Source of the DNA: Pseudorhodobacter antarcticus
GTDB lineage: Bacteria; Pseudomonadota; Alphaproteobacteria; Rhodobacterales; Rhodobacteraceae
Direction: 5' to 3'
DNA: 52,520 nucleotides
NCBI GenBank assembly: GCA_945871285.1
Contig: CAMBWO010000001.1
Coordinates: 1-52,520 of the forward strand
This document shows positions 9,302-52,520 of the stretch, piece by piece. Every line of letters starts with the position of its first letter. Position 1 is the first letter of the stretch. Under the pieces are notes generated by a model. That model saw only the letters and a list, made by a program, of their open reading frames with translations. It was not told where the DNA came from and did not search any database. The translations under genes and the position numbers were made by a program.

Positions 9302-9304
9302 AGG

Positions 9305-36095: not shown

Positions 36096-36114
36096 GCAGG
36101 CTCACCCATCAAGC

Positions 36115-36301: not shown

Positions 36302-36319
36302 GCGTCACACAACCGTAAC
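36302..36319 (+). promoter_or_regulatory. Putative Pho box upstream of phnF
   Basis: GCGTCAC-acaa-CCGTAAC, an 11-bp-period direct repeat resembling CTGTCAT-N4-CTGTCAC. Confidence 0.45.
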
Positions 36320-36369
36320 GATGGGGGTGTAACTCTCCGGTCATTCGAATGAATTACGGATCGGACAGC

Positions 36370-37119
36370 ATGGGCCGCGACAACTGGAAGATCATACGGG
36401 ACAAGATCTCGGCGAAAATCTCTGCCGGGGAACTTGAGCCCGGCGCACAACTGCCGACCGAGTCCCAACTGTGCCAGAGTTTTGCGACGGGCCGCCATTC
36501 GGTGCGGCGCGCGGTGGCGGCCCTGGCGGTCGAGGGCAAGCTGCGGGTCGAGCAGGGGCGCGGCACCTTTGTGCAGGCGGCCCCCTTGATCAGCTATCAA
36601 ATCGGGCGGCGCACCCGGTTTCGGCAAAACCTGCTGGAGCAGGGCATTGCCCCTGCGGGTGAGCAACTTGCCGACGCTGTCGTGCCGGCCTCGGCGCGGG
36701 TGGCGGCAGAGCTTGGCCTTGTCGAGGGCAGCCCGGTTCACCGCCTGTTGCGCCGCGGTCTGGCAGACGGGGTGCCGATCAGCATCGGGCTGTCCTGGCA
36801 CTGTGCCACCCGGTTTCCCGACCTTGCCGTGCAGCGCGCAGGCGGCGCGTCGGTCACAGATATCTACCGCAGCCACGGCATTGCGGACTATTTCCGCAAG
36901 CGCACCACGATCTTTGCGCGCCGACCCGACGACGAAGAGGCGCGGCTGCTCATGCAGCACCCCGATCAGCCGGTGTTGGTGCTGCAAAAGACCGATGTCG
37001 ACGCCGCGGGCCGGCCCCTTGGGTATTCCGAGGCGGTCTGGGCGGCGGACCGGGTGCAGTTTTCCTTTGACAGTCAGGATGAGGGCGATGGCGCCCCGGA
37101 AAGTACCGCCAATGTTTGA
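36370..37119 (+). CDS. phnF: PhnF, GntR/UTRA phosphonate regulator
   Basis: LPTESQL...RHSVRRAVAAL...EQGRGTFV HTH plus UTRA domain; start could be 36349. Confidence 0.92.
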   Translation: MGRDNWKIIRDKISAKISAGELEPGAQLPTESQLCQSFATGRHSVRRAVAALAVEGKLRVEQGRGTFVQAAPLISYQIGRRTRFRQNLLEQGIAPAGEQLADAVVPASARVAAELGLVEGSPVHRLLRRGLADGVPISIGLSWHCATRFPDLAVQRAGGASVTDIYRSHGIADYFRKRTTIFARRPDDEEARLLMQHPDQPVLVLQKTDVDAAGRPLGYSEAVWAADRVQFSFDSQDEGDGAPESTANV

Positions 37120-37555
37120 CCAAGGCTCTGATCCCGCCCAGCCCTTTGACCATGCGCGCCTGCTGGACGTGCTGGCCCGCGCCGATGCCGACCGTCTGGC
37201 CACGCTGGCCGAAGGCTTGCTGACAGCCTTAGGCCCGGTCGAGGTGGTGCAAAGCCGCACCGGTCTGGTCATGCTGCCGATGCGCGACACCGTGCAAGGC
37301 ACCGATTTTCATCTGGGCGAGGTGCTGGTGGCCGAGGCGCATATCCGGGCGGCGGGAACCGAAGGCTATGGCATGGTTGTGGGCCGCGACCTGAACCGTG
37401 CGATGGCGATGGCTGTGGTCGATGCAGCGGCCAGCCTTGGCCAAACGCCGCAGATCCGCGCCTTCCTGCACCACGAGGCGACCGCCCAAGCCGCCACCGA
37501 CACCGCCCGCCTGCGCGAGGTTGAGGCCACCCGCGTTGATATGGAGACGTTTTGA
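37112..37555 (+). CDS. phnG: PhnG C-P lyase complex subunit
   Basis: TGLVMLPMRD, FHLGEVLV, GYGMVVG and ATRVDMETF motifs; ATG 37112 overlaps phnF. Confidence 0.9.
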   Translation: MFDQGSDPAQPFDHARLLDVLARADADRLATLAEGLLTALGPVEVVQSRTGLVMLPMRDTVQGTDFHLGEVLVAEAHIRAAGTEGYGMVVGRDLNRAMAMAVVDAAASLGQTPQIRAFLHHEATAQAATDTARLREVEATRVDMETF

Positions 37556-38100
37556 TGTCCTTTCTGACCGCCGTTCCGCTGCCCGACGCCTTTGAAACGC
37601 GCACCAACGCCACGTTCGAGGCGCTGATGTGGGCCCTGTCCCGCCCCGGCACTGTGCAGGACTTGCCCGCCCCCGGCAGCGCGGGCATTGCCGAGGCGCT
37701 GCTGGACCGCGAATGCCGGGCGTTTTGCGACGATCCCGCCCTTGCGGACCGCATCGCCACCTTCGGCGCGGCGTTGGTGCCATTGCCCCTTGCTGATCAT
37801 TGCTTTCTTGCGCTGGACGCAGGCCTCGACCGGCTGGCGCAAATCGCGGTCGGCTCGGCGCTTTACCCTGACACAGGGGCCACAGTGGTGGCCCAGGCCC
37901 GGTTCGGCACGGGCCAGCGGTTGCGGCTGACCGGGCCAGGCATCGAAACCCTGGCCGAGATCGCGCTGGACGGGATTGCGCCCGGATTCTGGGCCTTGCG
38001 CGCAGCCCTGTGCCGCTATCCCGCCGGGTTTGATCTGTTTTTGACGTGCGGTGCCCAGGTGATCGGCCTGCCGCGTTCCACCACAATCGAGGTGCTCTGA
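37555..38100 (+). CDS. phnH: PhnH C-P lyase complex subunit
   Basis: FEALMWALSRPG, GSALYPDTGAT, LTGPGI, YPAGFD and GLPRST motifs; TGATG coupling. Confidence 0.9.
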   Translation: MSFLTAVPLPDAFETRTNATFEALMWALSRPGTVQDLPAPGSAGIAEALLDRECRAFCDDPALADRIATFGAALVPLPLADHCFLALDAGLDRLAQIAVGSALYPDTGATVVAQARFGTGQRLRLTGPGIETLAEIALDGIAPGFWALRAALCRYPAGFDLFLTCGAQVIGLPRSTTIEVL

Positions 38101-39164
38101 TGGCCTATGTTGCAACCCGCGGCGGCGAACGCGCCATTGAACAGTCCGAGCGTCTGTATCGTGCAGAACTGGGCCAGATCGACGCCGCCCGTGTGGCCGA
38201 AATTCGCCACGCGCTGCCGATGCTGATTGACCGCGTGATGGGGGAGGCTTCGCTCTATGAACCCGACCTTGCGGCCCTTGCCCTGGCACAGGCGGGGGGC
38301 GACCTGTATGAGGCGGTCTTGCTGCTTCGCGCCTGGCGCACCACCCAGCCGCGCCTGACGATTGCCCAGCCGGTGCTGCAAGACCAGCTTTTCACCCTTC
38401 GGCGGATCTCGGCGGCGTTCAAGGACATTCCGGGCGGACAGATCCTGGGACCAAGCCTCGACTATGCGCACCGCCTGCTGGCGACCGGGGTGTTGCAGGG
38501 GCGGCCCTATGTGCCCGCCGCCGTCCAGCCTGCCGCCACCCCGGCCCCCGCCCGGCAACCTTCGCTGGCCGCCTGGCAAAAGGCGCAGGGGCTGGTGGCT
38601 GACCCCGCCCGCGCCGATGTCGCCCCCGATGACATCCCCGACCTGACGCGCGAGCCGCTGCTGTTTCCCGCCGCACGTGCCCACACGCTGCAAAGCCTGG
38701 CGCGGGCCGATACCGGCGGGATGCTGGCCTTGGGCTATTCCGCGATGCGCGGCTATGGCAACGCCCACCCCACGGTCAACGAGTTGCGCCTCGCCGAGGC
38801 CGACGTCCGCGTGCGTCACCCCGGTGGCACGGTGTTTTCCGCCGGACGGGTCAAGGTCAGTCAGGCCGAGGTCACGTCAAAGGGCAAGTCGGGCCTGCTG
38901 GAGCTGGGCTTCTGCGCCACCCTGGGATGGAACGAGGTCAAGGTCATCTCGGGCGCCACGCTGGACCTGAACGCCCCCGGCGCCGCCAAGGGATCGCCGG
39001 TCGAAGAGGAGTTTTTCTTGTATCATACCGAACCGGTCGAGGCGTCCGGCTTTTGCATCCACTTCAAACTGCCGCATTACGTGACTTTTCAATCCTCGCT
39101 TGACGCCCTGCGCGGGGCCAAGGCCGTCCCTGCGCCCCATGAGCCCGAAAAGGTGCCCGCATGA
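38100..39164 (+). CDS. phnI: PhnI C-P lyase complex subunit
   Basis: MAYVATRGGE, RRISAAFKDIPGGQILG and HFKLPHYV motifs; TGATG coupling. Confidence 0.93.
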   Translation: MAYVATRGGERAIEQSERLYRAELGQIDAARVAEIRHALPMLIDRVMGEASLYEPDLAALALAQAGGDLYEAVLLLRAWRTTQPRLTIAQPVLQDQLFTLRRISAAFKDIPGGQILGPSLDYAHRLLATGVLQGRPYVPAAVQPAATPAPARQPSLAAWQKAQGLVADPARADVAPDDIPDLTREPLLFPAARAHTLQSLARADTGGMLALGYSAMRGYGNAHPTVNELRLAEADVRVRHPGGTVFSAGRVKVSQAEVTSKGKSGLLELGFCATLGWNEVKVISGATLDLNAPGAAKGSPVEEEFFLYHTEPVEASGFCIHFKLPHYVTFQSSLDALRGAKAVPAPHEPEKVPA

Positions 39165-40072
39165 CCATCGCCACCCTGACAAAACCGTGGGAAGCAATGT
39201 CCTACGGCTTCCTCGACGCCTCGGCCAAGCGCGAACTGCGGCGCAAGATGCTCAAGGCCATTGCCGTGCCGGGTTGCCAGATGCCCTATGCCAGCCGCGA
39301 AGTGCCAATGGCGCGGGGCTGGGGGACGGGTGGTTTGCAGGTGACGCTGACGCTGCTGCGGCCCAGTTCGGTGGTCAAGGTCATTGATCAAGGGGCCGAT
39401 GACAGCGTGAACGCGGCCTCGATCCGGTCGTTCCTCTCCAAGGTTTCGGGTGCACGGGAAACCTGGGATACCCTCGAGGCCACGATCCTGCAAAGCCGCC
39501 ACCGCATCCCCGAGGAACGGCTGCGCGCCGATCAGGTGCTGGTCTTGCAAGTGCCGAACCCCGAACCCCTGCGCCCGGTCGAACCCAACATGAGCGTCGC
39601 CCGCCAGATGCACGCCGATGCCGACTACGGGCGGCTGTGGCTGATCCTTTACGAACAGATCGTGCGGTCGGGCCGGGTCATGCAGGGGGCGGCCTATCCG
39701 TCACTGGTGAACGGGCGGCATGTGATGACGCCCTCACCCATCCCGCGCTGGGATGTGCCAAAGCTGCACATGGCGCAGCATTTGACCTTTCTGTCGGCCG
39801 GGCGCGAAAAGCGGCTGTACGCCGTCCCGCCCTTTACCAGGGTCGAACCTCTGGTCTTTTCCGACGTGCCCTTCCAGGTCGAGGATCATGCCGCGCTGAC
39901 CTGCCACCGCTCGGGGCTGACGGGCTATTTCATGAACGAGATCCCCCAGGGTGATGGCGGATCGCAGTTCGAACTGTCCGACAGCAACCTTGGCATCAAG
40001 GCGATCCGGCAGGCCGAAGGCGCCGACGCCCGCATCGGCCCCACCTGGTACGAAAACGGAAAGACATCATGA
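39161..40072 (+). CDS. phnJ: PhnJ homologue, atypical: lacks the CX2CX21C cluster motif and the catalytic Cys
   Basis: GWGTGG, KVIDQGADD, RHRIPE, PSPIP and AGREKR.YAVPPFT motifs are present; only two Cys in the protein (C39, C248). Confidence 0.92.
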   Translation: MTIATLTKPWEAMSYGFLDASAKRELRRKMLKAIAVPGCQMPYASREVPMARGWGTGGLQVTLTLLRPSSVVKVIDQGADDSVNAASIRSFLSKVSGARETWDTLEATILQSRHRIPEERLRADQVLVLQVPNPEPLRPVEPNMSVARQMHADADYGRLWLILYEQIVRSGRVMQGAAYPSLVNGRHVMTPSPIPRWDVPKLHMAQHLTFLSAGREKRLYAVPPFTRVEPLVFSDVPFQVEDHAALTCHRSGLTGYFMNEIPQGDGGSQFELSDSNLGIKAIRQAEGADARIGPTWYENGKTS

Positions 40073-40881
40073 CCCTCGCCCAACATTCCCTGGCCCTGCG
40101 TGCCCCGCAACTGATGACGACACCGCCCTTGCTGACCATGACCGGCGTCTCGCGCCGCTATGGCGACGTCGTGGCGCTCAGGGATGTGTCGGCCACCGTC
40201 TATCCCGGCGAGGTGCTGGGCATCGTCGGGGAAAGCGGCTCGGGCAAATCCACCCTGCTGCGGATGATGAACCTTGAGGATACGCCGGACGCAGGCGACT
40301 ACCGCCTGGCGCTGCCCGATCTGCCCGGAAACCTGTTCGATCTGGACCGCTTCGCACGGCGGATGCTGTGTGCCACGCGGATCGGCATCGTCTACCAGAA
40401 CCCGCACCTTGGCCTGTTGATGAAGCACACCTCCAGCGGGAACGTGGCCGAACGGTTGCTGATTGCAGGCGAGCGCAGCTTTGCCGCCCTGCGCGGCCGC
40501 GCGCGCGAGGCGCTGGACGCCTCGGAATTTCCGCTGGACCGGATGGACGCGCGACCGATCGAATTGTCAGGCGGGATGCAGCAGCGCGTGCAGCTGGCCA
40601 AGGCGATCGCGCTGGAGCCGGTGCTTTTGCTGCTGGACGAGCCGACCACCGGCCTTGACGTCTCCGTGCAGGCCCTGGTTCTGGATACGTTGAAGCGGTT
40701 GCAGCGTGACCGGGCCATCACCATGGTGATCGTCAGCCATGACCTTGGCGTGATCCGCACCATGGCTGACCGGGTGATGGTGATGCGGCGGGGCAGGGTG
40801 GTGGAACAGGGCCTGGCCGATCAGATCTTTCAAGACCCGCAGCACGACTATACCCAACAACTCGTCCATGCCAAACTGTGA
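40069..40881 (+). CDS. phnK: PhnK ABC-type ATPase subunit
   Basis: YPGEVLGIVGESGSGKST, GNVAERL, SGGMQQR and DEPTTGLDVSVQA motifs. Confidence 0.92.
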   Translation: MTLAQHSLALRAPQLMTTPPLLTMTGVSRRYGDVVALRDVSATVYPGEVLGIVGESGSGKSTLLRMMNLEDTPDAGDYRLALPDLPGNLFDLDRFARRMLCATRIGIVYQNPHLGLLMKHTSSGNVAERLLIAGERSFAALRGRAREALDASEFPLDRMDARPIELSGGMQQRVQLAKAIALEPVLLLLDEPTTGLDVSVQALVLDTLKRLQRDRAITMVIVSHDLGVIRTMADRVMVMRRGRVVEQGLADQIFQDPQHDYTQQLVHAKL

Positions 40882-41597
40882 GGCCCGCAATGACCCCCGT
40901 TCTTGAGGTCCAAGACCTCGCCAAACAGTTCCACATGCATCATCTGGACCAGGTGCTGCATGCCTTTGACGGCATCAGCTTCACCCTGCATGCGGGCGAA
41001 TTCCTGCTGCTGCGGGGCCCGAACGGGGTGGGCAAGTCCACCCTCTTGCGCACACTCTACCGCAGCTATCTGCCGCGCGCGGGGCATATCTGGTATCACA
41101 CGACCGAAGGCCGGATCGACCTTGCCACGGCGGCAGATGTGGACATTGCGCTGCTTCGCCGCCGCGAGATCGGGTTTGTGACGCAATTCCTGATCGCGCG
41201 GCCCCGGGTGGCGGCCGAGGATATCGTGTCCGAACCCCTGCGCCGCGCCGGAATGCCCGCGCCCGAGGCGCTGGACGAGGCCCGCCGCTGGCTGGCCGAG
41301 TTTGGCGTCAAGCGCGACCTTTGGCGGGCTTATCCCACGACCTTTTCGGGCGGCGAGCAGCAAAAGGTCAACCTGGCCCGCGCGCTGATCCTGCCGCAGC
41401 GGTTGCTGCTGCTGGATGAACCCACCGCCTCGCTGGATGCAGGTGCGCGGGCGGCATTGATCCGCAGGCTGGCCGATCTGAAGGCCGCAGGGGTGGCGAT
41501 GATCGGGGTATTCCATCACCCCGGCGATGTGGCGGGGCTGATCGACCGCGAAATTGAACTGACTGCGCAAGAGGTGTCCCAAGATGTGGCTGTCTGA
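40878..41597 (+). CDS. phnL: PhnL ABC-type ATPase subunit
   Basis: KQFHMH, GPNGVGKST, VTQFL, PTTFSGGEQQKVN and GVFH motifs; start GTG 40878 or ATG 40890. Confidence 0.92.
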   Translation: MRPAMTPVLEVQDLAKQFHMHHLDQVLHAFDGISFTLHAGEFLLLRGPNGVGKSTLLRTLYRSYLPRAGHIWYHTTEGRIDLATAADVDIALLRRREIGFVTQFLIARPRVAAEDIVSEPLRRAGMPAPEALDEARRWLAEFGVKRDLWRAYPTTFSGGEQQKVNLARALILPQRLLLLDEPTASLDAGARAALIRRLADLKAAGVAMIGVFHHPGDVAGLIDREIELTAQEVSQDVAV

Positions 41598-42753
41598 TTT
41601 CCGGGTGGTGACACCTGACTGTGTGCTGGAACGTGGGTCGGTCCGCGTTGAAGGGGGTCGCATCGTCGAGATTGCAGAAATCCCGATGCCCGGCGCGGCC
41701 CTTGCCGGCGATGGCCTGCTGCTGTTGCCCGGCTTTGTCGACATGCACGGCGACATGGTCGAACGTGAGGTCGAGCCGCGCCCCAATGTCCGCATGCCGA
41801 TGGAACTGGGTCTGCGCGACCTTGACCGACGGTTGGCGGCCTCTGGCGTGACCACGGCCTATGCGGCTGTCAGCTTTCATCCCGGATCGGCCTATGGCCA
41901 TATCCGCCATTTCGACCAGACCAGCGCCATCATCCGCGCCCTGAAATCGATGAATGATGTCCTGAAGGTCGACCACAAGGTTCACGCCCGGTTCGAGATC
42001 ACCTTCCCCGATGCCCTGCGCGTCGTGGAAGGGCTGATCGCCGAAGGCGCCGTCGATCTGGTGTCGCTGACCGATCACACCCCGGGGCAGGGGCAATACC
42101 GCGATATCGAGGCGCATGTGGCCCGCGTGGCCCGCGAAAAGGGCCTGAGCCAGACCGATGCCGAAAGCGAGGTCGCCCGGCGCATCGCCCAAAAGCACTC
42201 TGCCGCAGGCGACATGGCCGCCACGCTGCGCGCCATTTCCGCCACCTGCCGGGCGCATGGGGTGGCCTTGGCCAGCCATGACGATGACACGGCGCAAAAG
42301 GTCGCGCTGATGCAGGCGCTGGGGGCAGGGATCAGCGAATTTCCCGTCACCGTCGAGGCCGCAACCGAGGCCCGCACCCGCGGCCTTGCCACCGCGATGG
42401 GGGCACCAAATGCCCTGCGGGGCCAGTCCTACTCGGGCAACCTGTCCGCCCGCGCGGCGCATGAGCTGGGTCTGCTGGACATCCTCGCGTCAGACTATCA
42501 CCCCTCGGCGCTGCTGCCCGCCGTGCTGGAACTGGCCAAGGCCGACCCGCAGGGTCTGGCAGGCTCAACCCGTCTTGCCACGTTGAACCCGGCGCAGGCG
42601 CTTGGGCTGCGGGATCGGGGCGCCATCGCGCCGGGCCTGCTGGCCGATCTGGTGATTGCCGATGACAGCGGAATTGGCCATGTCCGCGCAACCCTGCGGG
42701 CGGGTGCCAAGATCTTCTCGGACGGCTCGATCTTTCTGGCGAGGGCGGCCTGA
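41584..42753 (+). CDS. phnM: PhnM alpha-D-ribose 1-methylphosphonate 5-triphosphate diphosphatase
   Basis: PGFVDMHGD, DHTPGQGQYR, ASHDD, SEFP, GAPNALRG and LASDY motifs. Confidence 0.92.
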   Translation: MWLSDFRVVTPDCVLERGSVRVEGGRIVEIAEIPMPGAALAGDGLLLLPGFVDMHGDMVEREVEPRPNVRMPMELGLRDLDRRLAASGVTTAYAAVSFHPGSAYGHIRHFDQTSAIIRALKSMNDVLKVDHKVHARFEITFPDALRVVEGLIAEGAVDLVSLTDHTPGQGQYRDIEAHVARVAREKGLSQTDAESEVARRIAQKHSAAGDMAATLRAISATCRAHGVALASHDDDTAQKVALMQALGAGISEFPVTVEAATEARTRGLATAMGAPNALRGQSYSGNLSARAAHELGLLDILASDYHPSALLPAVLELAKADPQGLAGSTRLATLNPAQALGLRDRGAIAPGLLADLVIADDSGIGHVRATLRAGAKIFSDGSIFLARAA

Positions 42754-42759
42754 GGCGGA

Positions 42760-42778: not shown

Positions 42779-42793
42779 GAACCGGCTGACGGT

Positions 42794-43609
42794 CTATTCG
42801 ACCAGACCCAGACCCTGCAGATAGGCAAAGCCCTGCGGGATCTGCGTCTTGTCGTGCAGCTCCAACACCAGATGCGGCGCGGTTGCGCAATCGGCCAGGG
42901 CGCGAAACACCGCCGCCCACTCAACCTCGCCCTCTCCGGGGGCCCAATGGCGGTCGGCGTGGCCGTCCACGTCTTGCAGATGCACGTGGGCCAACTGCAC
43001 GCCGGCATCCCGCACGAAATAGTCGACCGGCGGCGCCCCCGACATCCGGCGCGCAAGCTGCGCATGGCCCGTGTCAATCGAAAGGGCGACGCAAGGGCTG
43101 GCAAAGCTGTCAACCAGGGCGCGGCGGGTGGCGGGGTCAACATCCTCGATATTTTCGATCACGATGGTGATCCCGGTGTCTTCGGCGCGTTTGACCACCG
43201 GCCCAAGGACCGTATGAATGCGCGCCAGCTTCGCCTCGGCATATCCGGGCGATGCCAGCCGGTTGTTCTGATACCAGGCCCGATAGGGAGAGTGCAGCAC
43301 CATCTGCCGCGCGCCGATCGCTTCGGCAGCCTCTAGCGCGCGCAAAAACCGCGCCGTGATCAGGGGCCGCAGGTCCGCATCCTTGTTGTCGATATCAAGC
43401 CCCGCATAGGGGCCATGAATCCCGACGCGGCCCCCGTGACCGGCAAGCGCCACTTTGGCGGCAGCGATCCGATCCTGGCGTTCCGCGCCAAGGGCGGCGT
43501 GGGTCATGAAGTCCTGCAATTCGATGTCGCGCTGCGCGTCGAACAGCCAGGCGCGATGGTCGAAAATTTCGCAGGCGCGAAGACAGGCACCGATCTTGAG
43601 GGGGGGCAT
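42794..43609 (-). CDS. Xylose-isomerase-like / AP endonuclease 2 TIM-barrel metalloenzyme
   Basis: IHGPY, LHSP, IENI, DTGH, HVHLQD, DRHWAPGEG and LEL motifs; AAGGAG RBS before ATG 43609. Confidence 0.85.
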   Translation of the reverse strand: MPPLKIGACLRACEIFDHRAWLFDAQRDIELQDFMTHAALGAERQDRIAAAKVALAGHGGRVGIHGPYAGLDIDNKDADLRPLITARFLRALEAAEAIGARQMVLHSPYRAWYQNNRLASPGYAEAKLARIHTVLGPVVKRAEDTGITIVIENIEDVDPATRRALVDSFASPCVALSIDTGHAQLARRMSGAPPVDYFVRDAGVQLAHVHLQDVDGHADRHWAPGEGEVEWAAVFRALADCATAPHLVLELHDKTQIPQGFAYLQGLGLVE

Positions 43610-43635
43610 CGGGAAACTCCTTGGCTTGATACGCA

Positions 43636-45506: not shown

Positions 45507-46309
45507 CTGCCCGGTCCCATGATCTTCTGACGCAACACTGCGCCGATTTGTTCCACGCCGATCACCACGACCGCGATCATCAGGATCACGGTCACGGCGG
45601 TCGGATAATCGAAAAGGTCAAAGCCGACCTTCAGTTCAATCCCGATCCCGCCTGCCCCGACCAGACCCAGGATGGTCGAGGCGCGAACCGCCTTTTCCAA
45701 CGCAAATAGCCCGGTGGACACAAAGGCCGGAAGGGCTGCGGGAATAACCGCACTTGCGGCAATGTCGATGCGCCTGGCGCCGGTGGCGGTCAGGGCCTCG
45801 GCCGGGCCGGGGTCGGTGTTTTCCATGTCATCGGCAAAGAAGCGGCCGCAAAACCCGATGGTGTCAATGGCAATGGCCAGCATCCCCGCAAAGGGGCCAA
45901 GGCCGACCGCCACCACAAAGACCAGCGCCCAGGCGAGGTCTGGCACGGCCCGAAGGAAGCCCAGAATGATGCGCACGACCAGATTGACGCCGCGCCCCAC
46001 CAGCACGCCGCGCGCCGCCAAAAGTGCGATCGGCAGCGACAGCACAATGCCGATGGCCGCGCCCGAGACGGCGATCTGCAAGGTTTCCACCATCTTCCAC
46101 GCCAGCCGGTCCAGATTGTGGGTCGAGGGTGGCCAGGCGCGGGAAAAGAAATCAGCCAGCTTTGGCGGCGAGGACAGCAGCCGGTCCACCGACCAGCCCG
46201 CACCCTCCAGCGACCACAGGATGACAAGCGCCACCAGGACGTAACTGACAAAACCGATGCCGCCCGGCCGGTTGAAGCGATGCGGAACTGCGCGCGCCGG
46301 GCTATCCAT
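45503..46309 (-). CDS. phnE: PhnE/PtxC-type ABC permease
   Basis: ETLQIA, RAVPDL, GLGPFAG and VRASTILGLVGAGGIG motifs. Confidence 0.88.
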   Translation of the reverse strand: MDSPARAVPHRFNRPGGIGFVSYVLVALVILWSLEGAGWSVDRLLSSPPKLADFFSRAWPPSTHNLDRLAWKMVETLQIAVSGAAIGIVLSLPIALLAARGVLVGRGVNLVVRIILGFLRAVPDLAWALVFVVAVGLGPFAGMLAIAIDTIGFCGRFFADDMENTDPGPAEALTATGARRIDIAASAVIPAALPAFVSTGLFALEKAVRASTILGLVGAGGIGIELKVGFDLFDYPTAVTVILMIAVVVIGVEQIGAVLRQKIMGPGR

Positions 46310-47096
46310 AAAGCTTGGCCATTTCCAACGGGGTGACATCGGCCGAGCGCGCGTCGATGGCGATGCGGCCCCCCTGCAACCCCAGAATCCGGTCGCCATA
46401 GCTGAGGGCGTGCTGCACGTTGTGCGAGGTGAACAAAACCGTCACCCCTTCGCGTTTCACAAGCGACATGAAAAGCGCCATGACCTCTTCCCCCGCCTGC
46501 GGGTCGAGCGAGGCACAGGGCTCATCGGCCACCAGGAATCGCGGGCTGCACACCAGCGCGCGGGCAATCGCCACGCGCTGGCTTTGCCCACCCGACAGCT
46601 GATCGGCCCGGCGCAGCGCCAGATCGGCCAGCCCGACCTTTTCCAGCGCGGCCATGGCCGCAGCCCGCGCCTCGGCGGGGGCAAGGCCCTGGATCCAATA
46701 GCGCGGCCCGGAATGCCGCCCCAAAAGCCCATGAATGACATTGGACAACACCGACAGGCGCGGCACCAGATTGTGCTTTTGCCCCACCAGCCCGGTCCGG
46801 GCGCGCAACTCGCGCCGCGCCGTGCCGCCCAGATCGGCCAACGTCACGCCCAGCAAGGAAACCCGGCCGGCGTCGGGCGCAATCAGGCCAAGACAGCAGC
46901 GCAGCAGGGTGGATTTGCCAGTGCCATTGGCCCCGACCAGCGCGACACACTCGCCCCGCCGGATGCTGAAATCGAGACCGGAAAACACGGGCGCCGCCGT
47001 GCCAAACCGCTTGGAAAGGCTGTTGGCCTGCAGGTCGATCACCTGCTGGCCAACGCCGGTTGCCTTGTGCCGCATCGGCGGGCGGTCAAGTGGCAC
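46302..47096 (-). CDS. phnC: PhnC/PtxA-type ABC ATPase
   Basis: GANGTGKST, NLVPRLSVLSNV, LSGGQSQRV and DEPCASLDP motifs; start may be 47075. Confidence 0.88.
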   Translation of the reverse strand: MPLDRPPMRHKATGVGQQVIDLQANSLSKRFGTAAPVFSGLDFSIRRGECVALVGANGTGKSTLLRCCLGLIAPDAGRVSLLGVTLADLGGTARRELRARTGLVGQKHNLVPRLSVLSNVIHGLLGRHSGPRYWIQGLAPAEARAAAMAALEKVGLADLALRRADQLSGGQSQRVAIARALVCSPRFLVADEPCASLDPQAGEEVMALFMSLVKREGVTVLFTSHNVQHALSYGDRILGLQGGRIAIDARSADVTPLEMAKLYG

Positions 47097-47099
47097 CTG

Positions 47100-47972
47100 T
47101 CATTCCCCAAGGAACTTGTCGAACTGGGGATAACCTGCCGTGGTGTACATGGACCGGACGATGTCATAGGCCGCATCCTCGATCGTCACGAGGTCCATGC
47201 CGATGTACTTGTCGTTTTCCTCGTGCTGGGTGATGCCGGCGATGATCTGGGCCTTGTTGGCGATGATGCTGTCACGAACCAGCGCCTGAACGGCGGCCGG
47301 CACGTGGGCCCCGGCCAGCAGCATGTCGTTGGGCAGATCGCCCGACCGCGCCAGCACCTTGAAATAGCCATAAGGAACCGAGGTGTCCTTGCTGCGGGCC
47401 GAGGAGATCCAGCTGCCTTCGTTGATGCCGATGGCCGCAACGTCGCCCGCCTTCAACGCCTCGTGCGCGATGTTCGAGGCCGTGTGCACCTTGTCGATGT
47501 CGTTGACCGGATCGACGCCATAATCGGCCATCAACTGCATCGGGCACAACATGTTCGAGGTCGACCCGATGTCGCCGAAGGCAACCTTCTTGCCCTTCAG
47601 GTCGTCCATGCTGTCGATGCCCGCGTCGGCGCGCACGACGATCGCGCAGCGATAATCGGGGCGGCCAAAACCGATCAGCGGGGTCGCCTTGGTCAGGGTG
47701 TTGATGATGATGTATTCGGCCGGGCCGGTGATCACGAAATCAATCGTCTCCCCGCGCAGGGCTTCGGCGGAGGCGGTCCGCGACGAGACCGGAAAAAAGT
47801 CGAAGGTTTCCCCTGTCGCGGCCTCAAGGGCCGCCTTGAACGGACCCCATTCCGCCTGCAAACGCTCCAGTCCCTCGACGTCCGTGACGGCGATGCTCCA
47901 GGTTTCTGCGGTGGCGGCGGTTGCGCCGAGGACGGCCAGGGCCGTTCCAAACATCATGGTCTTCAGCGACAT
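47100..47972 (-). CDS. PhnD/PtxB-like phosphate/phosphite/phosphonate binding protein (divergent)
   Basis: Signal peptide from ATG 47972 (GGAGAG RBS); DLKGKKVAFGD.GSTS, LPND and AYDIVR motifs. Confidence 0.85.
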   Translation of the reverse strand: MSLKTMMFGTALAVLGATAATAETWSIAVTDVEGLERLQAEWGPFKAALEAATGETFDFFPVSSRTASAEALRGETIDFVITGPAEYIIINTLTKATPLIGFGRPDYRCAIVVRADAGIDSMDDLKGKKVAFGDIGSTSNMLCPMQLMADYGVDPVNDIDKVHTASNIAHEALKAGDVAAIGINEGSWISSARSKDTSVPYGYFKVLARSGDLPNDMLLAGAHVPAAVQALVRDSIIANKAQIIAGITQHEENDKYIGMDLVTIEDAAYDIVRSMYTTAGYPQFDKFLGE

Positions 47973-48066
47973 GGCAAGCTCTCCGTTTGCTATTGATTGG
48001 CACGATTGGCTAAGGCCCGCCCGTGACGCCCCGGCGACGTGCGTGTAAACTTTTTCAAAAATAGCC

Positions 48067-48084
48067 ATGACATGTTTACGACAC
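48067..48084 (-). promoter_or_regulatory. Putative Pho box for the minus-strand phnD operon
   Basis: Minus strand reads GTGTCGT-aaac-ATGTCAT. Confidence 0.55.
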
Positions 48085-48224
48085 CCAGGGCCTCTGACGG
48101 CCATGTGGTGCGGCGCACGCGAAAGCGCCCGACGTCATGCCCGGTGCAAGGCCGTGCCGGGCCCACCGCCGCCCCGCCTGTCGGTCCATCCCGCGGATCG
48201 GAAATCAAGAAGGTCCGCAAGCGC

Positions 48225-48242
48225 CTGTTACATCAACGTCAA
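48225..48242 (+). promoter_or_regulatory. Putative Pho box for the phnCDEE operon
   Basis: CTGTTAC-atca-ACGTCAA followed by an AT-rich stretch, about 60 bp upstream of phnC. Confidence 0.45.
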
Positions 48243-48308
48243 GAATTGGTTTCCAAATATTCATCCGGATGACGCTGGCCTGTTGCGTGCCGCTGGCAAA
48301 TGGTCGGC

Positions 48309-49124
48309 ATGGAAAAGCACATGCTCTCTCTTGCTGGCCTTGGCCGCACCTTCGGCTCAACCCGCGCGGTTGATGCCGTAACACTGAATATCCGCTCCGG
48401 CGAGTTTGTCGGGGTGATTGGTCGATCTGGCGCAGGCAAATCCACGCTGCTGCGTCTGATCAACCGCCTGATCGACCCCACCTCTGGCCGGATCACGTTT
48501 GGCGATACCGATATCACGGCGCTGCGCGGACGCGACCTGCGGCAATGGCGACGCGACTGCGCCATGATCTTTCAGCAGTTCAATCTGGTGGAACGGTTGG
48601 ACGTTCTGACCAACGTGCTGGTGGGCCGTCTTGCCGATCACGGATTTCTGTCCTCGATGGCGATGCGCTTTTCCGATGCCGAACGCACGATTGCCATTCG
48701 CGCCCTGGACCGTCTGGACCTGGCCCCGCAGGCGTTGCAGCGCGCAGGCACCCTGTCGGGCGGTCAGCAGCAGCGCGTGGCCATCGCCCGGGCGCTGGTG
48801 CAAAACCCCCGCATCATGCTGGCGGATGAGCCCATCGCCAGTCTTGACCCCGGCAACGCCACCCGCGTCATGGAAGCCTTGCGCAGCATCAACCGCGATG
48901 ACGGCATCACCATTCTGGTCAATCTGCACACCCTGGACACCGCGCGCGCCTATTGCCACCGCATCATCGCCATGCGCGACGGCCGGGTGCTGTTTGACGG
49001 CACGCCGCGCCAGCTGACCGACGATGTCGTGCGCGACATCTATGGCAGCGAGGGCCTGACCGAGTTCAACGAAGCGGTGACCTCGACCGCCGCCCACCCC
49101 AATCGCCTCCGCGAGACCGCCTGA
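48309..49124 (+). CDS. phnC: PhnC phosphonate ABC ATPase
   Basis: [39 protein letters not shown] and NLHTLD motifs; exact start uncertain (48300-48321). Confidence 0.92.
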
Positions 49125-49157
49125 TCCCCTTCACCCCCTGAACCTTGGAGCTTTCTG

Positions 49158-50060
49158 ATGCGCCTTTTTGCAACCACCGCCCTCGTCGCCCTGACCGCCC
49201 TTCCGGCAATCGCCCAAGACTGGAAGGCCGATTACCGCATCGTCCGTTTCGGCATCCTGTCGGGCGAGAACGAATCCGACCGCGTCGCCCGCTACACTCC
49301 GTTTCAGGAATATCTGGAAAAGACGCTGGGCGTTGAGGTCGAGATTTTCACCGCCGGAAACTATGACGGCGTGATCCAGGCGCTGGCCGCCGGACAGATC
49401 GAGTTTTCCTTTCTCGGCTCGTCCGCCTATGCCGCCGCCTATACCGAAACCGACGGCGGCGTCGTCCCGTTGCTGACCTCGGTTCAGGACGACGATTCGA
49501 CCGGATATTATTCTGTGATCGTGGTGCGCTGTGATTCCGGCCTGAAGACCATCGACGATCTGAAGGGCAAGACCCTTGCCTTCGCCGACCCCGACAGCAC
49601 CTCGGGCTACAACGTCCCCTACTACAACCTGGTCCAGCAAGGCTATCAGCCCGAGGAATTCTTTGCGGCCATCCCGTTCTCAGGCAGCCACGAAGCCGGG
49701 GTTGCAGGTGTGGTCAACGGCCAGTTCGAGGCCGCCGCGACCTATATCAACAACGAAAAGAGCGGCATCCCGCAGCGAATGGTGACCAAGGGCATGATCA
49801 AGGAAGGCGAGGCCTGCGTGATCTGGACCAGCCCGGAAATCACCTCGGGCCCCTTCACCGCACGCGCCAACCTTCCGCAAGGTCTGATCGACGAGATGAC
49901 GGCGGCTGTCCTCGCCACGCCCACCGCCGCGCCCGAGGCCTTCAAGGAAATGTCCGGGGCGGACGACTCGACCGCAAAGGGCTATGTCGCGGTGAATCAC
50001 GACCGTTATCAGTGGATTGTCGACATGCGCGCCTGGTTCAAGGCAAACCGCAAGGGCTGA
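49158..50060 (+). CDS. phnD: PhnD phosphonate ABC substrate-binding protein
   Basis: Signal peptide; NYDGVIQ, GYYS, ADPDSTSGY and FSGSHE motifs. Confidence 0.92.
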   Translation: MRLFATTALVALTALPAIAQDWKADYRIVRFGILSGENESDRVARYTPFQEYLEKTLGVEVEIFTAGNYDGVIQALAAGQIEFSFLGSSAYAAAYTETDGGVVPLLTSVQDDDSTGYYSVIVVRCDSGLKTIDDLKGKTLAFADPDSTSGYNVPYYNLVQQGYQPEEFFAAIPFSGSHEAGVAGVVNGQFEAAATYINNEKSGIPQRMVTKGMIKEGEACVIWTSPEITSGPFTARANLPQGLIDEMTAAVLATPTAAPEAFKEMSGADDSTAKGYVAVNHDRYQWIVDMRAWFKANRKG

Positions 50061-50079
50061 TCCTTGATCCAACGCGATA

Positions 50080-50104
50080 AGGGCGGGCCAACTTGGCCCG
50101 CCCT
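50080..50104 (+). terminator. Stem-loop after phnD (mRNA stabiliser)
   Basis: AGGGCGGGCCA-act-TGGCCCGCCCT, an 11-bp stem. Confidence 0.55.
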
Positions 50105-50124
50105 GGCCCAGCCGGGAATACCAG

Positions 50125-51027
50125 ATGTCCACAGCCATCCTTGCCTTTGAACGCGATTACGCCGTCCAACGCCGTCATGCCCGCCTGACCTTTGCCGCCG
50201 TGACGGGGGTGATGGTCGTGCTGTTCTTGCTGACGGCAGAGGCGTCGAACTTCTTCAAGATCACACAAGTCACCCTGGCCGACGGAACCCGCGCCGAGCG
50301 TTGGGTGATCGGTGCCGGCCTGCCGCGCCTTGGCGAATACATCACCAAGACAATCCCGCAGTTGCGCTGGGCGACCCTGGGCCACGACCTCGCCGTCTGG
50401 TTCTCACGTTGGGAAGTCTGGGCGCAACTGCTGTTGGAAACCGTGCTGATTGCCTTCATGGCGACGGTCTTGGGTGTGATCGGCGGGTTCATCCTGTCGT
50501 TTCCCGCCGCGCGCAACCTTGCACCCAACCGCTGGATATTCTGGCTGTGCCGTCGCTACCTTGAAATCGCCCGCACGGTGCCAGAGCTGATCTTTGCGCT
50601 GATCTTTGTCTTCTGCTTTGGCGTCGGACCGCTGGCCGGGGTGCTGGCCATTGGGCTGCATACGGCAGGCTCGCTGGGCAAGCTGTATTCCGAGGCCAAT
50701 GAAAACATCGACATGCGACCACTGGACGGGGTCAAGGCGGCCGGTGGGTCATGGTTTGACATGGTCCGCTATGGGGCCGTGCCGCAGGTGCTGCCCAATG
50801 TCCTCAGCTATACCCTGCTGCGCTTCGAAATCAACGTGCGGGCATCGTCCATCATCGGCTATGTCGGCGCGGGTGGGCTGGGCCAAGAGTTCCGCACCGC
50901 CATGTCCTATCAGGACTACACCGATCTTTCGGCCTTGTTCGTCATCATTCTGGTGACTGTGACGGTGATCGACCGTCTGTCCGAAATGCTGCGCCACCGC
51001 GTCATCGGATTGGAGGAACGGGCATGA
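50125..51027 (+). CDS. phnE: PhnE phosphonate ABC permease 1
   Basis: RTVPEL, GKLYSEANE and RFEINVRASSIIG.VGAGG motifs. Confidence 0.92.
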   Translation: MSTAILAFERDYAVQRRHARLTFAAVTGVMVVLFLLTAEASNFFKITQVTLADGTRAERWVIGAGLPRLGEYITKTIPQLRWATLGHDLAVWFSRWEVWAQLLLETVLIAFMATVLGVIGGFILSFPAARNLAPNRWIFWLCRRYLEIARTVPELIFALIFVFCFGVGPLAGVLAIGLHTAGSLGKLYSEANENIDMRPLDGVKAAGGSWFDMVRYGAVPQVLPNVLSYTLLRFEINVRASSIIGYVGAGGLGQEFRTAMSYQDYTDLSALFVIILVTVTVIDRLSEMLRHRVIGLEERA

Positions 51028-51890
51028 CACCTCACATCGTCACCACAACTGAAATCGCCTTGGCCCGCGCGGCCCACCCCCTGGCCTTTCGGGCCCCCCT
51101 GTCCGTGCGTGTGCGCCGGGCCGCCGTCCTGACCGGCCTGGTGCTGCTGTTTTGCTGGTGCCTTTACGATTTCAATTTCTCGCCCGCCCGCATCTGGGAA
51201 GGGCTGGGCCGCCTCGGCCGGGTGCTGTCCTTCATGTTTCCGCCGCATATCTGGACCGAATGGCGCGAATTCGCCGAGATCCTGAAAGGTCTGGGCGAAA
51301 CCCTGTCGATGGCCTTTCTGGGCACGCTGCTTGGCGCGATCATTGCCTTTCCGCTGTCGTTTCTGGGGGCCCGGAACATCAACCGCCTGCCCATCTTTCG
51401 CTTTGCGGTGCGGCGCGGGTTCGACTTTATCCGCGCCTTTGAAACCTTGATCCTTGCGCTGATCTTCATCCGCGCGTTCGGCCTTGGGCCGCTGGCCGGG
51501 GTGCTGGCCATCGCAGTCGGTGAAATCGGCGTCCTGGCCAAGCTTTATGCCGAGGCGATCGAGAACACGTCCAACAAACCGGTGGACGGCGTGGTCGCAT
51601 CCGGTGGCAGCCGCACCCAATCCATCCGCTTTGCGGTGATGCCGCAGGTCGTGCCGGTCTTGTTGTCGATCACGCTTTACAACTTCGAATCCAATGTCCG
51701 CTCCGGAACCATTCTGGGCATCGTCGGTGCGGGGGGCATTGGCTTCCTGCTGGCCGACCGGATCGGCGCCTACCGCTGGGACGAAGCCTGGTCGATCATC
51801 TTCCTGATCATCGCGATGGTCTATCTGATCGACTGGCTCTCTGGCCGGGTTCGCGCGCGTTTCATCGGAACATGGGAGGGAACCAGATAA
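51024..51890 (+). CDS. phnE: PhnE phosphonate ABC permease 2
   Basis: GLGPLAG, KLYAEAIE and FESNVRSGTILGIVGAGGIG motifs. Confidence 0.92.
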   Translation: MTPHIVTTTEIALARAAHPLAFRAPLSVRVRRAAVLTGLVLLFCWCLYDFNFSPARIWEGLGRLGRVLSFMFPPHIWTEWREFAEILKGLGETLSMAFLGTLLGAIIAFPLSFLGARNINRLPIFRFAVRRGFDFIRAFETLILALIFIRAFGLGPLAGVLAIAVGEIGVLAKLYAEAIENTSNKPVDGVVASGGSRTQSIRFAVMPQVVPVLLSITLYNFESNVRSGTILGIVGAGGIGFLLADRIGAYRWDEAWSIIFLIIAMVYLIDWLSGRVRARFIGTWEGTR

Positions 51891-52520
51891 TGACCTATGC
51901 CGTCGAAATCGTCGTGCCGGGAACTGAGGGTCCGGTCTTTGCCCCAGCGGGCGTGTCCTCTCCGGCGTCTGTCTGCAGTGGCTGCACCGTGACGGGGGGC
52001 CGGGTAGAGCGACTGAGTGAAGCGACTTCTGGTCAAGAAGTGCTGCTGGTGGCGCCCGAGGGGGCCGAAGTGACCTTTCGTTATGACTATTCCGGCCAAC
52101 CCGGCACCTATCCCGAGGCGATATTCCATCCCGTCCCGTCACGCTATACCCGCGCAGCCCCTGCCCTGGAGGAGGAGGCGCGCCAGATTGCCGGAACTGG
52201 TGACGATCTTGCCCGCGCCCTCCGCATCGCCCGCGCCACGGCTGAACGGTTTGACTATGGCCACCCAGAGCGGAAATTCACGGACGGCTTCGACCATGTT
52301 CCGCATCTGACCTGCCGCCTGACCGAAGGCTCCTGCGTCGACATCCACACCTACTTTCTTGCCTCGCTCCGCGCAGCCGGGATCGAGGCGGGCTATGTCG
52401 TCGGCTATTTCTTCCCCGAGGTCGGCGACTGCACCAGCGGGCATTGCTGGGCAGTCACCCGCATCGGCGGGCAGACGCAGGAATGGGACATCTCGCATTT
52501 CCTGCAAATCGGACGGCGCG
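51890..52520 (+). CDS. Transglutaminase-like domain protein (partial, runs off window; absent from the ORF track)
   Basis: ATG 51890 overlaps the phnE stop (TAATG); open to the window end; GSCVDIH, SGHCW and EWD supply a Cys-His-Asp triad; LRAAGIEAGYVVGY. Confidence 0.85.
   Translation, partial: MTYAVEIVVPGTEGPVFAPAGVSSPASVCSGCTVTGGRVERLSEATSGQEVLLVAPEGAEVTFRYDYSGQPGTYPEAIFHPVPSRYTRAAPALEEEARQIAGTGDDLARALRIARATAERFDYGHPERKFTDGFDHVPHLTCRLTEGSCVDIHTYFLASLRAAGIEAGYVVGYFFPEVGDCTSGHCWAVTRIGGQTQEWDISHFLQIGRR

Follow-up and report, generated by a model that had tools for sequence, protein, structure and literature searches.

A second, conserved C-P lyase lineage with a PhnJ missing three of the four radical-reaction cysteines

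Introduction

How does a C-P lyase release phosphorus when, of the four cysteines of the radical reaction, its PhnJ has kept a single one? This question is raised by the lake bacterium Pseudorhodobacter antarcticus, which carries two phn sets, a canonical one and a second, intact, atypical one. The latter lies in the stretch of DNA analyzed here (the window, positions 1-52,520), which is the complete contig CAMBWO010000001.1 of a fragmented assembly (89% complete, 4% contamination). The mechanism of C-P lyase is itself unsettled: a distance of about 30 Å separates the zinc site from the cluster site and Gly32 (PMC9947105 and passages of PMC7916636).

Results

Gene content and integrity of the locus

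A first-pass annotation had described three operons at 36302..52520. All 19 genes were recovered at the positions and on the strands it gave, with open frames. Family matches are given in brackets.

36302..36344, plus: two Pho-box-like direct-repeat pairs in tandem, with a period of 11 bases, upstream of phnF
36349..37119, plus: phnF, GntR/UTRA regulator (TIGR02325, 206 bits, cut-off 157)
37112..37555, plus: phnG (TIGR03293, above cut-off)
37555..38100, plus: phnH (TIGR03292, above cut-off)
38100..39164, plus: phnI (zinc histidines kept; clade-typical residues)
39161..40072, plus: phnJ, cysteine-less lineage (PF06007, 381 bits, above family cut-off)
40069..40881, plus: phnK, ABC ATPase (best family TIGR02323, below cut-off; 7Z15_I, E 1e-61)
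40878..41597, plus: phnL, ABC ATPase (best family TIGR02324, below cut-off)
41584..42753, plus: phnM, triphosphate diphosphatase (NF011988 and TIGR02318, above cut-off)
42794..43636, minus: TIM barrel of endonuclease-IV-like type, a predicted metal phosphoesterase and candidate substitute for PhnP (PF01261)
43636..44850, minus: phnM2, a further amidohydrolase of the PhnM family with 34% identity to phnM (NF011987, above cut-off)
44850..45506, minus: class I SAM methyltransferase (PF13649; structure matches generic only)
45503..46399, minus: phnE', permease (TIGR01097)
46302..47096, minus: phnC', ATPase (best family TIGR02315, below cut-off)
47100..47972, minus: phnD', binding protein, divergent (closest to the structures of PtxB and HtxB)
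48067..48084, minus: Pho-box-like repeat upstream of phnD', 3 mismatches, weak
48300..49124, plus: phnC, core operon (TIGR02315, above cut-off)
49158..50060, plus: phnD, core operon (TIGR03431, above cut-off; nearest structure E. coli PhnD)
50125..51027, plus: first phnE (TIGR01097)
51024..51890, plus: second phnE (TIGR01097)
51872..52520, plus: transglutaminase-like protein, truncated by the contig end (PF01841; no PDB match)

The reported overlaps of start and stop codons were confirmed, the F-G-H-I-J-K-L-M junctions sharing 8, 1, 1, 4, 4, 4, and 14 bases, and the C-P lyase genes phnG, H, I, J, K, L, and M are together and intact. The convergent minus-strand block phnD'-C'-E'-methyltransferase-phnM2-TIM barrel ends 40 bases from the phnM stop codon, and the phnC-D-E-E-transglutaminase-like operon is present on the plus strand. 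No stop codon or frameshift was seen in these genes, the transglutaminase-like gene being judged without its 3' end (contig edge); a 91.5% identical copy on another contig, C400 (431/471 bases), runs on into a hexapeptide acetyltransferase. The contrast that had been drawn with pseudogenes elsewhere in the window was partly borne out at 12-15 kb (a split OsmF binding protein and a truncated ProV) and not confirmed at 27-30 kb, where none of the seven tested ORFs had a Pfam match. Contigs from four of the 21 listed sequencing runs were aligned to 36000-52520, with the only listed indels in intergenic positions (36272 and 48140); the stretch from phnF to phnL is spanned gap-free by a 4.8 kb contig from a different strain.

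Compared with canonical C-P lyase (7Z19), the gene set and the order from G to M are the same, and phnN, phnO, and phnP are missing. The window indeed holds no phnN, phnP, or GNAT (PhnO-type) gene, family searches of the genome matching other contigs only. A search of the rest of the genome for a canonical phnJ and phnN, as the annotation had proposed, revealed a canonical operon on contig C4 (phnCDEE-acetyltransferase-F-GHIJKL-N-DUF1045-M, the alphaproteobacterial arrangement); for PhnP, no match above cut-off was found anywhere in the host genome. Since the C4 operon carries phnN and DUF1045, the absence of phnN and phnP from the window says little. Both operons have two phnE genes and a hexapeptide acetyltransferase nearby. 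Their phn subunits are 35-45% identical; all four cysteines are present in the C4 PhnJ, which shares 45% identity with the window PhnJ and belongs to a different clade.

Catalytic residues of PhnJ and PhnI

At the positions of E. coli C241/C244/C266/C272 the window PhnJ has C248/S251/L272/G278, in line with the earlier description of PhnJ as atypical. Of the three cluster cysteines of radical-SAM PhnJ of the E. coli type (C241, C244, and C266) only C241 is kept, and the thiyl cysteine C272 is absent; judged from its sequence, the protein cannot hold the canonical three-cysteine [4Fe-4S] cluster. As three of the four cysteines of the radical reaction are missing, a different chemistry of phosphorus release is likely.

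Other site residues are shared with the canonical enzyme (residues from PMC9947105, section 9). G38, R113, H114, and Q130 correspond to E. coli G32 (the glycyl radical site), R107, H108, and Q124. In PhnI, the zinc histidines H223, H321, and H326 (E. coli H219, H328, and H333) are invariant across the loci compared, and the interface of PhnI and PhnJ retains its ribose/zinc site. These residues and the dN/dS values below support the annotation's claim that ribosylation and PhnM are kept, their machinery being intact and selectively maintained. The fold is likewise that of canonical PhnJ, with about 25 extra C-terminal residues: in an AlphaFold model the C-terminal domain is retained (pLDDT 86-90), and the model matches 7Z19 chain D with a TM of 0.75 at ~48% identity. 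The residues contacting PhnK (PMC9947105, section 8) are either unchanged or conservatively substituted, with D155 and Y164 at the positions of E149 and Y158. An electron relay through the C-terminal Trp-Tyr of PhnJ was considered and rejected, the pair being invariant in 120 near homologues but not in Synechococcus/Deinococcus.

Near its zinc histidines the window PhnI differs from the canonical protein by the clade-typical residues Cys319, Asn227, Gln255, and Glu311. Cys319 occurs at 50/53 lineage loci versus 5/57 canonical ones and at 14/17 further loci; the Synechococcus branch is without it.

A conserved clade spanning four phyla

The cysteine loss was found in all 120 nearest homologues of the window PhnJ and at 27/27 genome loci of its clade. 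In quick IQ-TREE phylogenies with midpoint roots, the lineage forms one clade both for the whole protein (SH-aLRT 99) and for residues 1-233 alone (SH-aLRT 96, or 83 with wider sampling), with members in Alphaproteobacteria, Deinococcota, Chloroflexota, and hot-spring Synechococcus. The lineage supplies the sole PhnJ found in 13 of 15 PhnJ-bearing Deinococcota, 8 of 29 Chloroflexota (excluding L163 and L168, which failed the cysteine pattern and group with canonical PhnJ), four hot-spring Synechococcus, and three Rhodobacteraceae genomes that are 99% complete, completeness figures covering the Rhodobacteraceae only. Four Deinococcota are without Cys241 too, and in three of them the aligned protein is free of cysteine altogether; most members retain Gly32, which is Ala in three Synechococcus. 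A search of 50% representatives returned mostly fragments, 15/150 covering both PhnJ domains: 14 with four cysteines and one of the cysteine-less lineage, so that no second, independent loss was seen among them.

The PhnJ clade is under purifying selection, with dN/dS of 0.03-0.19 for phnJ and 0.05-0.34 for its C-terminal domain; 15 window genes compared with locus L001 gave 0.04-0.24. This is a second, conserved C-P lyase lineage, whose members have so far been annotated as ordinary PhnJ. No description of a cysteine-less PhnJ was found in the literature searched, most of it from outside subscription journals.

Core operon and optional cassette

The conserved unit is phnF-GHIJKLM-CDEE; phnCDEE is thus part of the core operon, separated in the window by the inverted cassette phnD'C'E'-methyltransferase-phnM2-TIM. 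Rather than co-occurring equally with canonical PhnJ, the accessory genes were enriched with the lineage. Among 25 genomes with lineage PhnJ, 30 with canonical PhnJ only, and 17 without PhnJ, (i) the methyltransferase was present in 14, 2, and 0; (ii) phnM2 in 17, 6, and 0; (iii) a close TIM ortholog in 12, 1, and 0; and (iv) the transglutaminase-like gene in 7, 2, and 0, respectively. They do not form a fixed three-operon system, always with and never without lineage PhnJ: they are optional, and the cassette also occurs without lineage PhnJ (loci L113, L114, and L121). The view that the three operons make one pathway finished by the accessory enzymes is therefore not supported. The cassette likely widens uptake or processing instead of supplying a missing catalytic step. 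PDB and homologue searches assigned no function to the methyltransferase, the transglutaminase-like protein, or the TIM barrel.

Predicted phosphodiesterases

The nearest solved structure to the TIM barrel is Thermus thermophilus TTHB071 (3AYT), with which it has nine of nine putative metal ligands in common, the ligand set being the one we assume for TTHB071. The cobamide-remodelling phosphodiesterase CbiR is a weak match (36 bits against a 105-bit cut-off), and the protein (PF01261 fold) falls outside the PhnP, PhnPP, and RcsF sequence families. Twelve of 17 Deinococcota, Chloroflexota, or Synechococcus loci carry a predicted phosphodiesterase (TIM 7, YfcE 5, PHP/PhnPP-like 1), and three alphaproteobacterial loci carry DUF1045. 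Replacement of PhnP is already known (PMC10574752, section 15): in variant C-P lyase operons (RcsF/DUF1045, or PhnPP of the PHP family) unrelated phosphodiesterases fill the cyclic-phosphate slot, and DUF1045 and a PHP protein also adjoin lineage operons. Such recurrence fits a cyclic-phosphate product, and the TIM barrel is predicted to be a functional analogue in the PhnP slot. For an endonuclease-IV-like TIM barrel or a YfcE-family enzyme in this predicted role, no description was found in the literature searched.

Pho-box-like repeats, transport, and neighbours

Scored against what we take to be the Pho-box consensus, repeats within three mismatches lie at 23/30 phnF loci (3.9 expected from shuffles) and, weakly, at 3/6 phnD' loci (0.5 expected); the two C4 promoters have 4-5 mismatches to the same pattern. 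In pairwise alignments PhnD' lacks the PtxB tyrosine and has Arg at the HtxB Trp52 position, aromatic residues that presumably cap the P-H bond. The core-operon PhnD also lacks the tyrosine, which weakens phosphite as a substrate.

PhnO-like GNAT and hexapeptide acetyltransferases adjoin lineage operons and likewise canonical ones. A conserved radical-SAM partner was sought by Pfam among 236 neighbours (part of those predicted, some from loci without lineage PhnJ) and discarded, the one case being an unrelated-looking radical-SAM/SPASM gene on the opposite strand beside locus L192. Three loci have ArsP permeases, and there are weak matches to ArsM; the arsenic use that these might suggest was set aside, as the Pho-box-like repeats and phn context favour phosphorus.

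The lineage in hot-spring Synechococcus

The PhnJ ABD01166.1 (P0278), which we take to be that of Synechococcus OS-B' (JA-2-3B'a(2-13)), belongs to the cysteine-less lineage and is 59-62% identical to the window PhnJ. One genome (G897) has a PhnJ at zero distance from it, as its one PhnJ, together with one full PhnI. Work by Gomez-Garcia in 2011 reportedly found methane and ethane release by OS-B'; we know of no knockout of its operon. OS-A also grows on phosphonates.

In the passages available, OS-B' is described as growing on phosphonates (PMC5955973) and, unlike OS-A, as doing so heterotrophically in the dark (PMC9600594), which would be hard to explain by an alkane-only product; its methane release is cited in passages of PMC11665274 and PMC4400912. 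As C-P bonds are also cleaved by OS-A, which is without the operon, according to a passage of PMC3266647, growth of OS-B' is not assignable to the operon. These passages treat the OS-B' cluster as an ordinary C-P lyase. Unlike the window it is without phnF (PMC5955973, in part), and the hot-spring Synechococcus loci analyzed have one phnE and no accessory cassette, against two phnE and the cassette in the window.

Discussion

Our preferred reading, which we hold tentatively and at somewhat less than even confidence, is an intact, conserved second C-P lyase lineage for Pho-controlled phosphorus scavenging, with non-radical phosphorus release at the PhnI-PhnJ zinc site from substrates with an activated leaving group. 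Induction would be of the PhoB type and import by PhnCDEE; PhnGHIL, given their intact homologues, would swap the adenine of ATP for the phosphorus compound, and PhnM would remove pyrophosphate. The retained R107/H108/Q124 of PhnJ bind ribose cyclic phosphate at the zinc in E. coli. In the weakest step, the ribose 2'-OH would attack phosphorus in the ATP-driven closed state and expel, without a radical, a group that on chemical grounds could be the P-H of phosphite, a beta-carbonyl or oxidised carbon, or a P-O or P-N group. The product would be ribose 1,2-cyclic phosphate; gene context suggests ring opening by an interchangeable phosphodiesterase, in this locus the TIM barrel, and completion of the pathway in trans by PhnN from contig C4. 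Several points speak against the polar step. The methane and ethane reported from OS-B' speak for a radical route on unactivated alkylphosphonates, acetyltransferases beside lineage and canonical operons suggest ordinary aminoalkylphosphonates, and the retained residues of the zinc site may have a role in ribosylation alone (PMC9947105, discussion). Retention of Gly32 in most members and the radical-SAM/SPASM gene at L192 also count against a cluster-free polar reaction.

Radical cleavage of ordinary alkyl- or aminoalkylphosphonates could instead start outside the PhnJ cluster, through a distant activase or oxygen, metal, or light chemistry, perhaps with the PhnI Cys319 thiol. We consider this unlikely, though seriously to be weighed: the phosphonate growth described in passages of PMC5955973 and the reported methane and ethane release concern a strain with lineage PhnJ, G897 has no other PhnJ or full PhnI, Cys319 beside the zinc site typifies the lineage, and the canonical mechanism fits the structure poorly, given the ~30 Å gap from Gly32 (PMC9947105, section 9; PMC7916636, in part). 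Yet there is no conserved radical-SAM neighbour, the Synechococcus branch lacks Cys319, three of its members have Ala for Gly32, and OS-A cleaves C-P bonds without the operon (PMC3266647, in part). Rather improbable is a PhnJ that is scaffold only, like its homologue PhnH, completing the core and docking PhnK/L while a separate enzyme (TIM barrel, YfcE/PHP phosphodiesterase, or PhnM2) frees phosphorus. Conserved PhnK contacts, the dispensability of every radical residue somewhere in the clade, and the repeated recruitment of phosphoesterases agree with it. Nevertheless, 5/17 non-alphaproteobacterial loci have none of the three phosphodiesterases, phnM2 is absent from 8/25 genomes, the C-terminal domain of PhnJ is still under selection, and a hydrolase acting on the ribose-1-phosphonate ester would merely return phosphonate. 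This scaffold role comes closest to the view of the first-pass annotation.

That the operon works only alongside a canonical PhnJ of the same cell, adding transport or ribosylation specificity while the C4 enzyme cleaves the bond, seems quite improbable. A second PhnJ does accompany the lineage in 22/25 Rhodobacteraceae genomes (versus 190/375 of the rest) and at 17/21 alphaproteobacterial loci, and one genome (G431, locus L120) keeps window-type phnF-M-CDEE and methyltransferase-phnM2 with no phnGHIJKL at the locus; against this stand the 13 Deinococcota, 8 Chloroflexota, 4 Synechococcus, and 3 Rhodobacteraceae (99% complete) in which lineage PhnJ is the sole one found. Broken genes elsewhere in the window and the fragmented assembly might suggest that the copy is decaying or without function, or an artefact of the assembly, which is highly improbable and already contradicted by the pattern in 120/120 homologues and four phyla, the strong purifying selection, and the gap-free contigs from other samples.

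The wider proposal is more doubtful than our preferred reading: a C-P lyase branch in four phyla would cleave P-C (or P-H) bonds without an Fe-S cluster or SAM, and in some members without any cysteine, through the ATP-driven PhnI-PhnJ zinc site, and the TIM barrel would be a new cyclic-phosphate phosphodiesterase. If this holds and methylphosphonate is cleaved, as the hot-spring Synechococcus reports suggest, the radical mechanism would not be required for aerobic methane formation. In a natural lineage that is under selection and has no radical residues, the two sites are uncoupled, and the mechanism becomes testable in air. Since they carry the ordinary PhnJ annotation, its members may be included in surveys that take phnJ counts as methane potential and dropped from those filtering on catalytic residues, as described in a passage of PMC9381506 (section 5). 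Identification of the substrate might uncover a phosphorus source that has gone unrecognised in lakes, seas, and hot springs.

Genes of the locus

All 19 genes that the first-pass annotation had assigned to three operons were recovered at the positions it had given, successive frames from phnF to phnM overlapping by 8, 1, 1, 4, 4, 4, and 14 bases. Its remark that phnN, phnP and phnO are missing from the window held as well, as searches of the genome with the phnN, phnP and GNAT families matched other contigs only. The window is contig C1 of an assembly (G000) that comprises 4.6 Mb in 427 contigs with a completeness of 89%; its relatives mark the bacterium as a Rhodobacteraceae-like alphaproteobacterium. 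Inside the window phn genes, no indels were among those listed when contigs from 4 of 21 runs were compared. The final gene (transglutaminase-like) is interrupted by the contig end. A second, 91.5% identical copy, followed by a hexapeptide acetyltransferase, lies on another contig (C400:1-1282); it is a duplicate or else stems from a strain assembled along with this one. Operon DNA also occurs in lake-water and freshwater metagenomes (12 records with at least half of the words, from 8 studies, one possibly the source). Window features referred to here are as follows:

308-10366, sulfur-oxidation (sox) cluster containing soxA, soxB, soxC, and cytochromes; a YeeE/TsuA-like transporter is encoded at 9305-10366
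11990-15586, glycine-betaine ABC transporter in which OsmF is split into two ORFs and ProV truncated at 174 residues
27086-30594, seven ORFs, none with a Pfam match
38100-39164, phnI
39161-40072, phnJ
47100-47972, minus strand, phnD'

A PhnJ lineage lacking most of the cluster cysteines

Compared with E. coli PhnJ, the window protein retains Cys241 (as C248) and carries Ser, Leu, and Gly in place of Cys244, Cys266, and Cys272. In the accepted mechanism, as set out in two sources (PMC7916636, PMC11978286), these four cysteines act as ligands of the [4Fe-4S] cluster and carrier of the thiyl radical. Equivalents of Gly32, Arg107, His108, and Gln124 (E. coli numbering) are retained, as are the three zinc histidines of PhnI. 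In the E. coli cryo-EM structure, according to PMC9947105, PhnJ Arg107/His108/Gln124 and the PhnI zinc histidines hold ribose 1,2-cyclic phosphate at the zinc. The cysteine-less operon resembles C-P lyase in architecture and its PhnJ is a member of PF06007, but this protein lacks the defining features of a radical-SAM PhnJ.

The cysteine pattern was common to all 120 nearest PhnJ homologues (119 at 83-95% identity, one at 68%), and 80 genomic PhnJ loci divided into 27 of the cysteine-less type and 53 canonical ones. In a tree of whole PhnJ (122 sequences), the cysteine-less type formed one side of a single branch (SH-aLRT 99). The same split was obtained with residues 1-233, leaving out the cysteine region (SH-aLRT 96; 68 of the 122 sequences), and branch support was 83 with wider PhnJ sampling. 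Wherever present at cysteine-less loci, PhnG, I, K, L, and M were nearer to the window copies than to those of the canonical operon on contig C4. Cysteine-less PhnJ is a lineage and not an accident. In the literature searched, we found no published account of it. Altered cysteine spacing was seen in two Chloroflexota PhnJ that fall among the canonical ones in the tree (L163 and L168), the L168 domain containing three cysteines.

The type is rare across the class, where besides G000 it was found in 1 of 400 sampled genomes; at family level it occurred in 25 of 400. It was the single match in 13 of the 15 PhnJ-bearing genomes among 201 sampled Deinococcota, and in 8 of 29 among 401 Chloroflexota. 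Four Deinococcota PhnJ have Asp at the last remaining cysteine, three of them being devoid of cysteine over the aligned protein, and three of four hot-spring Synechococcus PhnJ carry Ala at Gly32. Because of these Deinococcota without any cysteine and Synechococcus with Ala at Gly32, each residue that the radical mechanism needs is dispensable in some member of the clade.

Gene layout and putative Pho boxes

Most alphaproteobacterial relatives have phnF-GHIJKLM-CDEE on a single strand, often with a hexapeptide acetyltransferase next. In the window and at locus L001, a cassette of phnD'C'E'-methyltransferase-phnM2-(TIM barrel or second methyltransferase) is inverted between phnM and phnC. The view that the three operons make up one fixed system was not borne out. 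The cassette is present without cysteine-less PhnJ at three loci (L113, L114, L121). L120 combines a window-type phnF-M-CDEE, from which phnGHIJKL are missing, with a convergent methyltransferase-phnM2; a TIM barrel follows the canonical operon at L119, and distant phnM2 genes adjoin 4 of 53 canonical loci. The genome with L120 (G431, the locus lying at C3:186000-205999) has one PhnJ, canonical-type by identity. In G000, the phnM2-TIM cassette has left a second remnant at C217:1-2106, where the end of a phnM2 with a frameshift, a TIM-barrel paralogue (45%), an ORF resembling metallophosphoesterases, and an ABC transporter of the sugar type are found.

Accessory genes were searched in 72 family genomes: all 25 with the cysteine-less type, 30 canonical-only (top of the list among those with a completeness of 98% or more), and 17 for which no PhnJ was listed. 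Copies mostly lay within about 12 kb of phnJ. The methyltransferase lay within 10 kb at two, and the transglutaminase-like gene at one, of the first 27 cysteine-less loci, some flanks of which end early.

Table. Family genomes with accessory genes, by PhnJ type. The counts are descriptive, since related genomes are not independent samples and the island moves as one unit.
Gene; cysteine-less; canonical-only; without PhnJ
Methyltransferase; 14/25; 2/30; 0/17
phnM2; 17/25; 6/30; 0/17
TIM barrel, at least 69% identity; 12/25; 1/30; 0/17
Any TIM barrel, E < 1e-20; 18/25; 11/30; 1/17
Transglutaminase-like; 7/25; 2/30; 0/17

Two Pho-box-like repeat pairs lie upstream of the window phnF. Of 30 loci whose phnF resembles that of the window, 23 had a site with at most three mismatches to a Pho-box consensus, mostly 56-75 bases upstream, whereas shuffled sequences would give 3.9. 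Three canonical loci among the 30 had five mismatches each, and the two C4 promoters scored poorly against the same consensus.

Predicted phosphodiesterases and other neighbours

The TIM barrel was the one accessory recurring across phyla (7 of 17 Deinococcota, Chloroflexota, and Synechococcus loci, plus L027). It shares with TTHB071 nine His/Asp/Glu residues (H74, H115, E161, D188, H191, H219, D228, H230, and E259), putative metal ligands that correspond to the endonuclease IV set; its CbiR match is weak. A YfcE-family phosphodiesterase lies within the operon at 5 of the same 17 loci, plus L025, a PhnPP-related PHP protein at one, and DUF1045 at further cysteine-less loci. Such interchange of predicted phosphodiesterases in the PhnP position suggests that the lyase product remains a ribose cyclic phosphate. 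At L023, a phosphonoacetaldehyde hydrolase is encoded downstream on the same strand, which ties one lineage member to phosphonate catabolism.

Several other neighbours were noted: (i) a phosphoribosyltransferase-fold gene after phnM in two Deinococcota (L186:16706-17263 and L190:17023-17607), possibly filling the PhnN role; (ii) ArsP-like permease genes adjoining three operons (L005:18125-19095, L013:3387-3830, L125:7394-7927); (iii) a Stf0-type sulfotransferase adjoining the operon in L007, L125, and L126, accompanied at two of these loci by a histidine phosphatase and at one by GNAT genes; and (iv) an alpha-glucan phosphorylase-like ORF between phnI and phnJ (L181:10366-12081), with transposases close by. 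The window PhnD' has Arg at the HtxB Trp52 position and Asn where His is usual, which hints at a more anionic ligand.

Mechanism and relation to the canonical operon

We tentatively favour a cluster-free lyase that would cleave activated substrates by a polar route at the zinc site. There are precedents for such chemistry: PhnA and PhnX act on beta-carbonyl phosphonates by non-radical cleavage, and the alkaline phosphatase of E. coli oxidizes phosphite with release of H2. The main alternative, radical cleavage initiated from outside PhnJ, is rather unlikely. Its best lead is PhnI Cys319, two residues ahead of a zinc histidine, which 50 of 53 lineage loci carry vs 5 of 57 canonical loci; however, it is missing from the Synechococcus branch. 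In a cluster look-up, ABD01166.1 (P0278), presumably a Synechococcus OS-B' protein, proved to be a lineage member, and genome G897, whose PhnJ is separated from it by a tree distance of zero, encodes a single PhnJ and a single full PhnI. We know of no knockout of the OS-B' phn operon. The physiology cuts both ways: methane and ethane, reportedly released in light (Gomez-Garcia, 2011), favour radical cleavage, whereas dark use of phosphonate carbon favours a product other than an alkane. Published sources describe growth of OS-B' on phosphonates (PMC5955973), heterotrophy on phosphonates in the dark for OS-B' and not OS-A (PMC9600594), and an uncharacterised C-P cleavage in these cells (PMC3266647).

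That cysteine-less PhnJ is a scaffold only seems distinctly improbable, and decay of the operon hardly conceivable. Over 10 pairs, with one further pair saturated, the dN/dS of phnJ was 0.03-0.19; that of its C-terminal domain was 0.05-0.34. An AlphaFold model built from 36 clade members had a mean pLDDT of 71; because the C-terminal domain reached 86-90 and the model matched 7Z19 chain D (TM 0.75), this domain is folded rather than decayed. Dependence of the operon on a canonical PhnJ is very doubtful. The search of the remaining genome for a canonical phnJ and phnN led to contig C4, whose canonical operon has a four-cysteine PhnJ, phnN, and DUF1045. A second PhnJ was present in 22 of 25 family genomes with the cysteine-less type vs 190 of 375 others, its cysteines having been read in G000 and L009 and the other listed second copies typed by 47-52% identity. 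In three family genomes, each 99% complete, the cysteine-less type is the sole PhnJ. In alphaproteobacteria the cysteine-less operon is thus usually an addition, and elsewhere it stands alone; its usual presence in addition to a canonical PhnJ argues for a substrate range different from that of the canonical operon.
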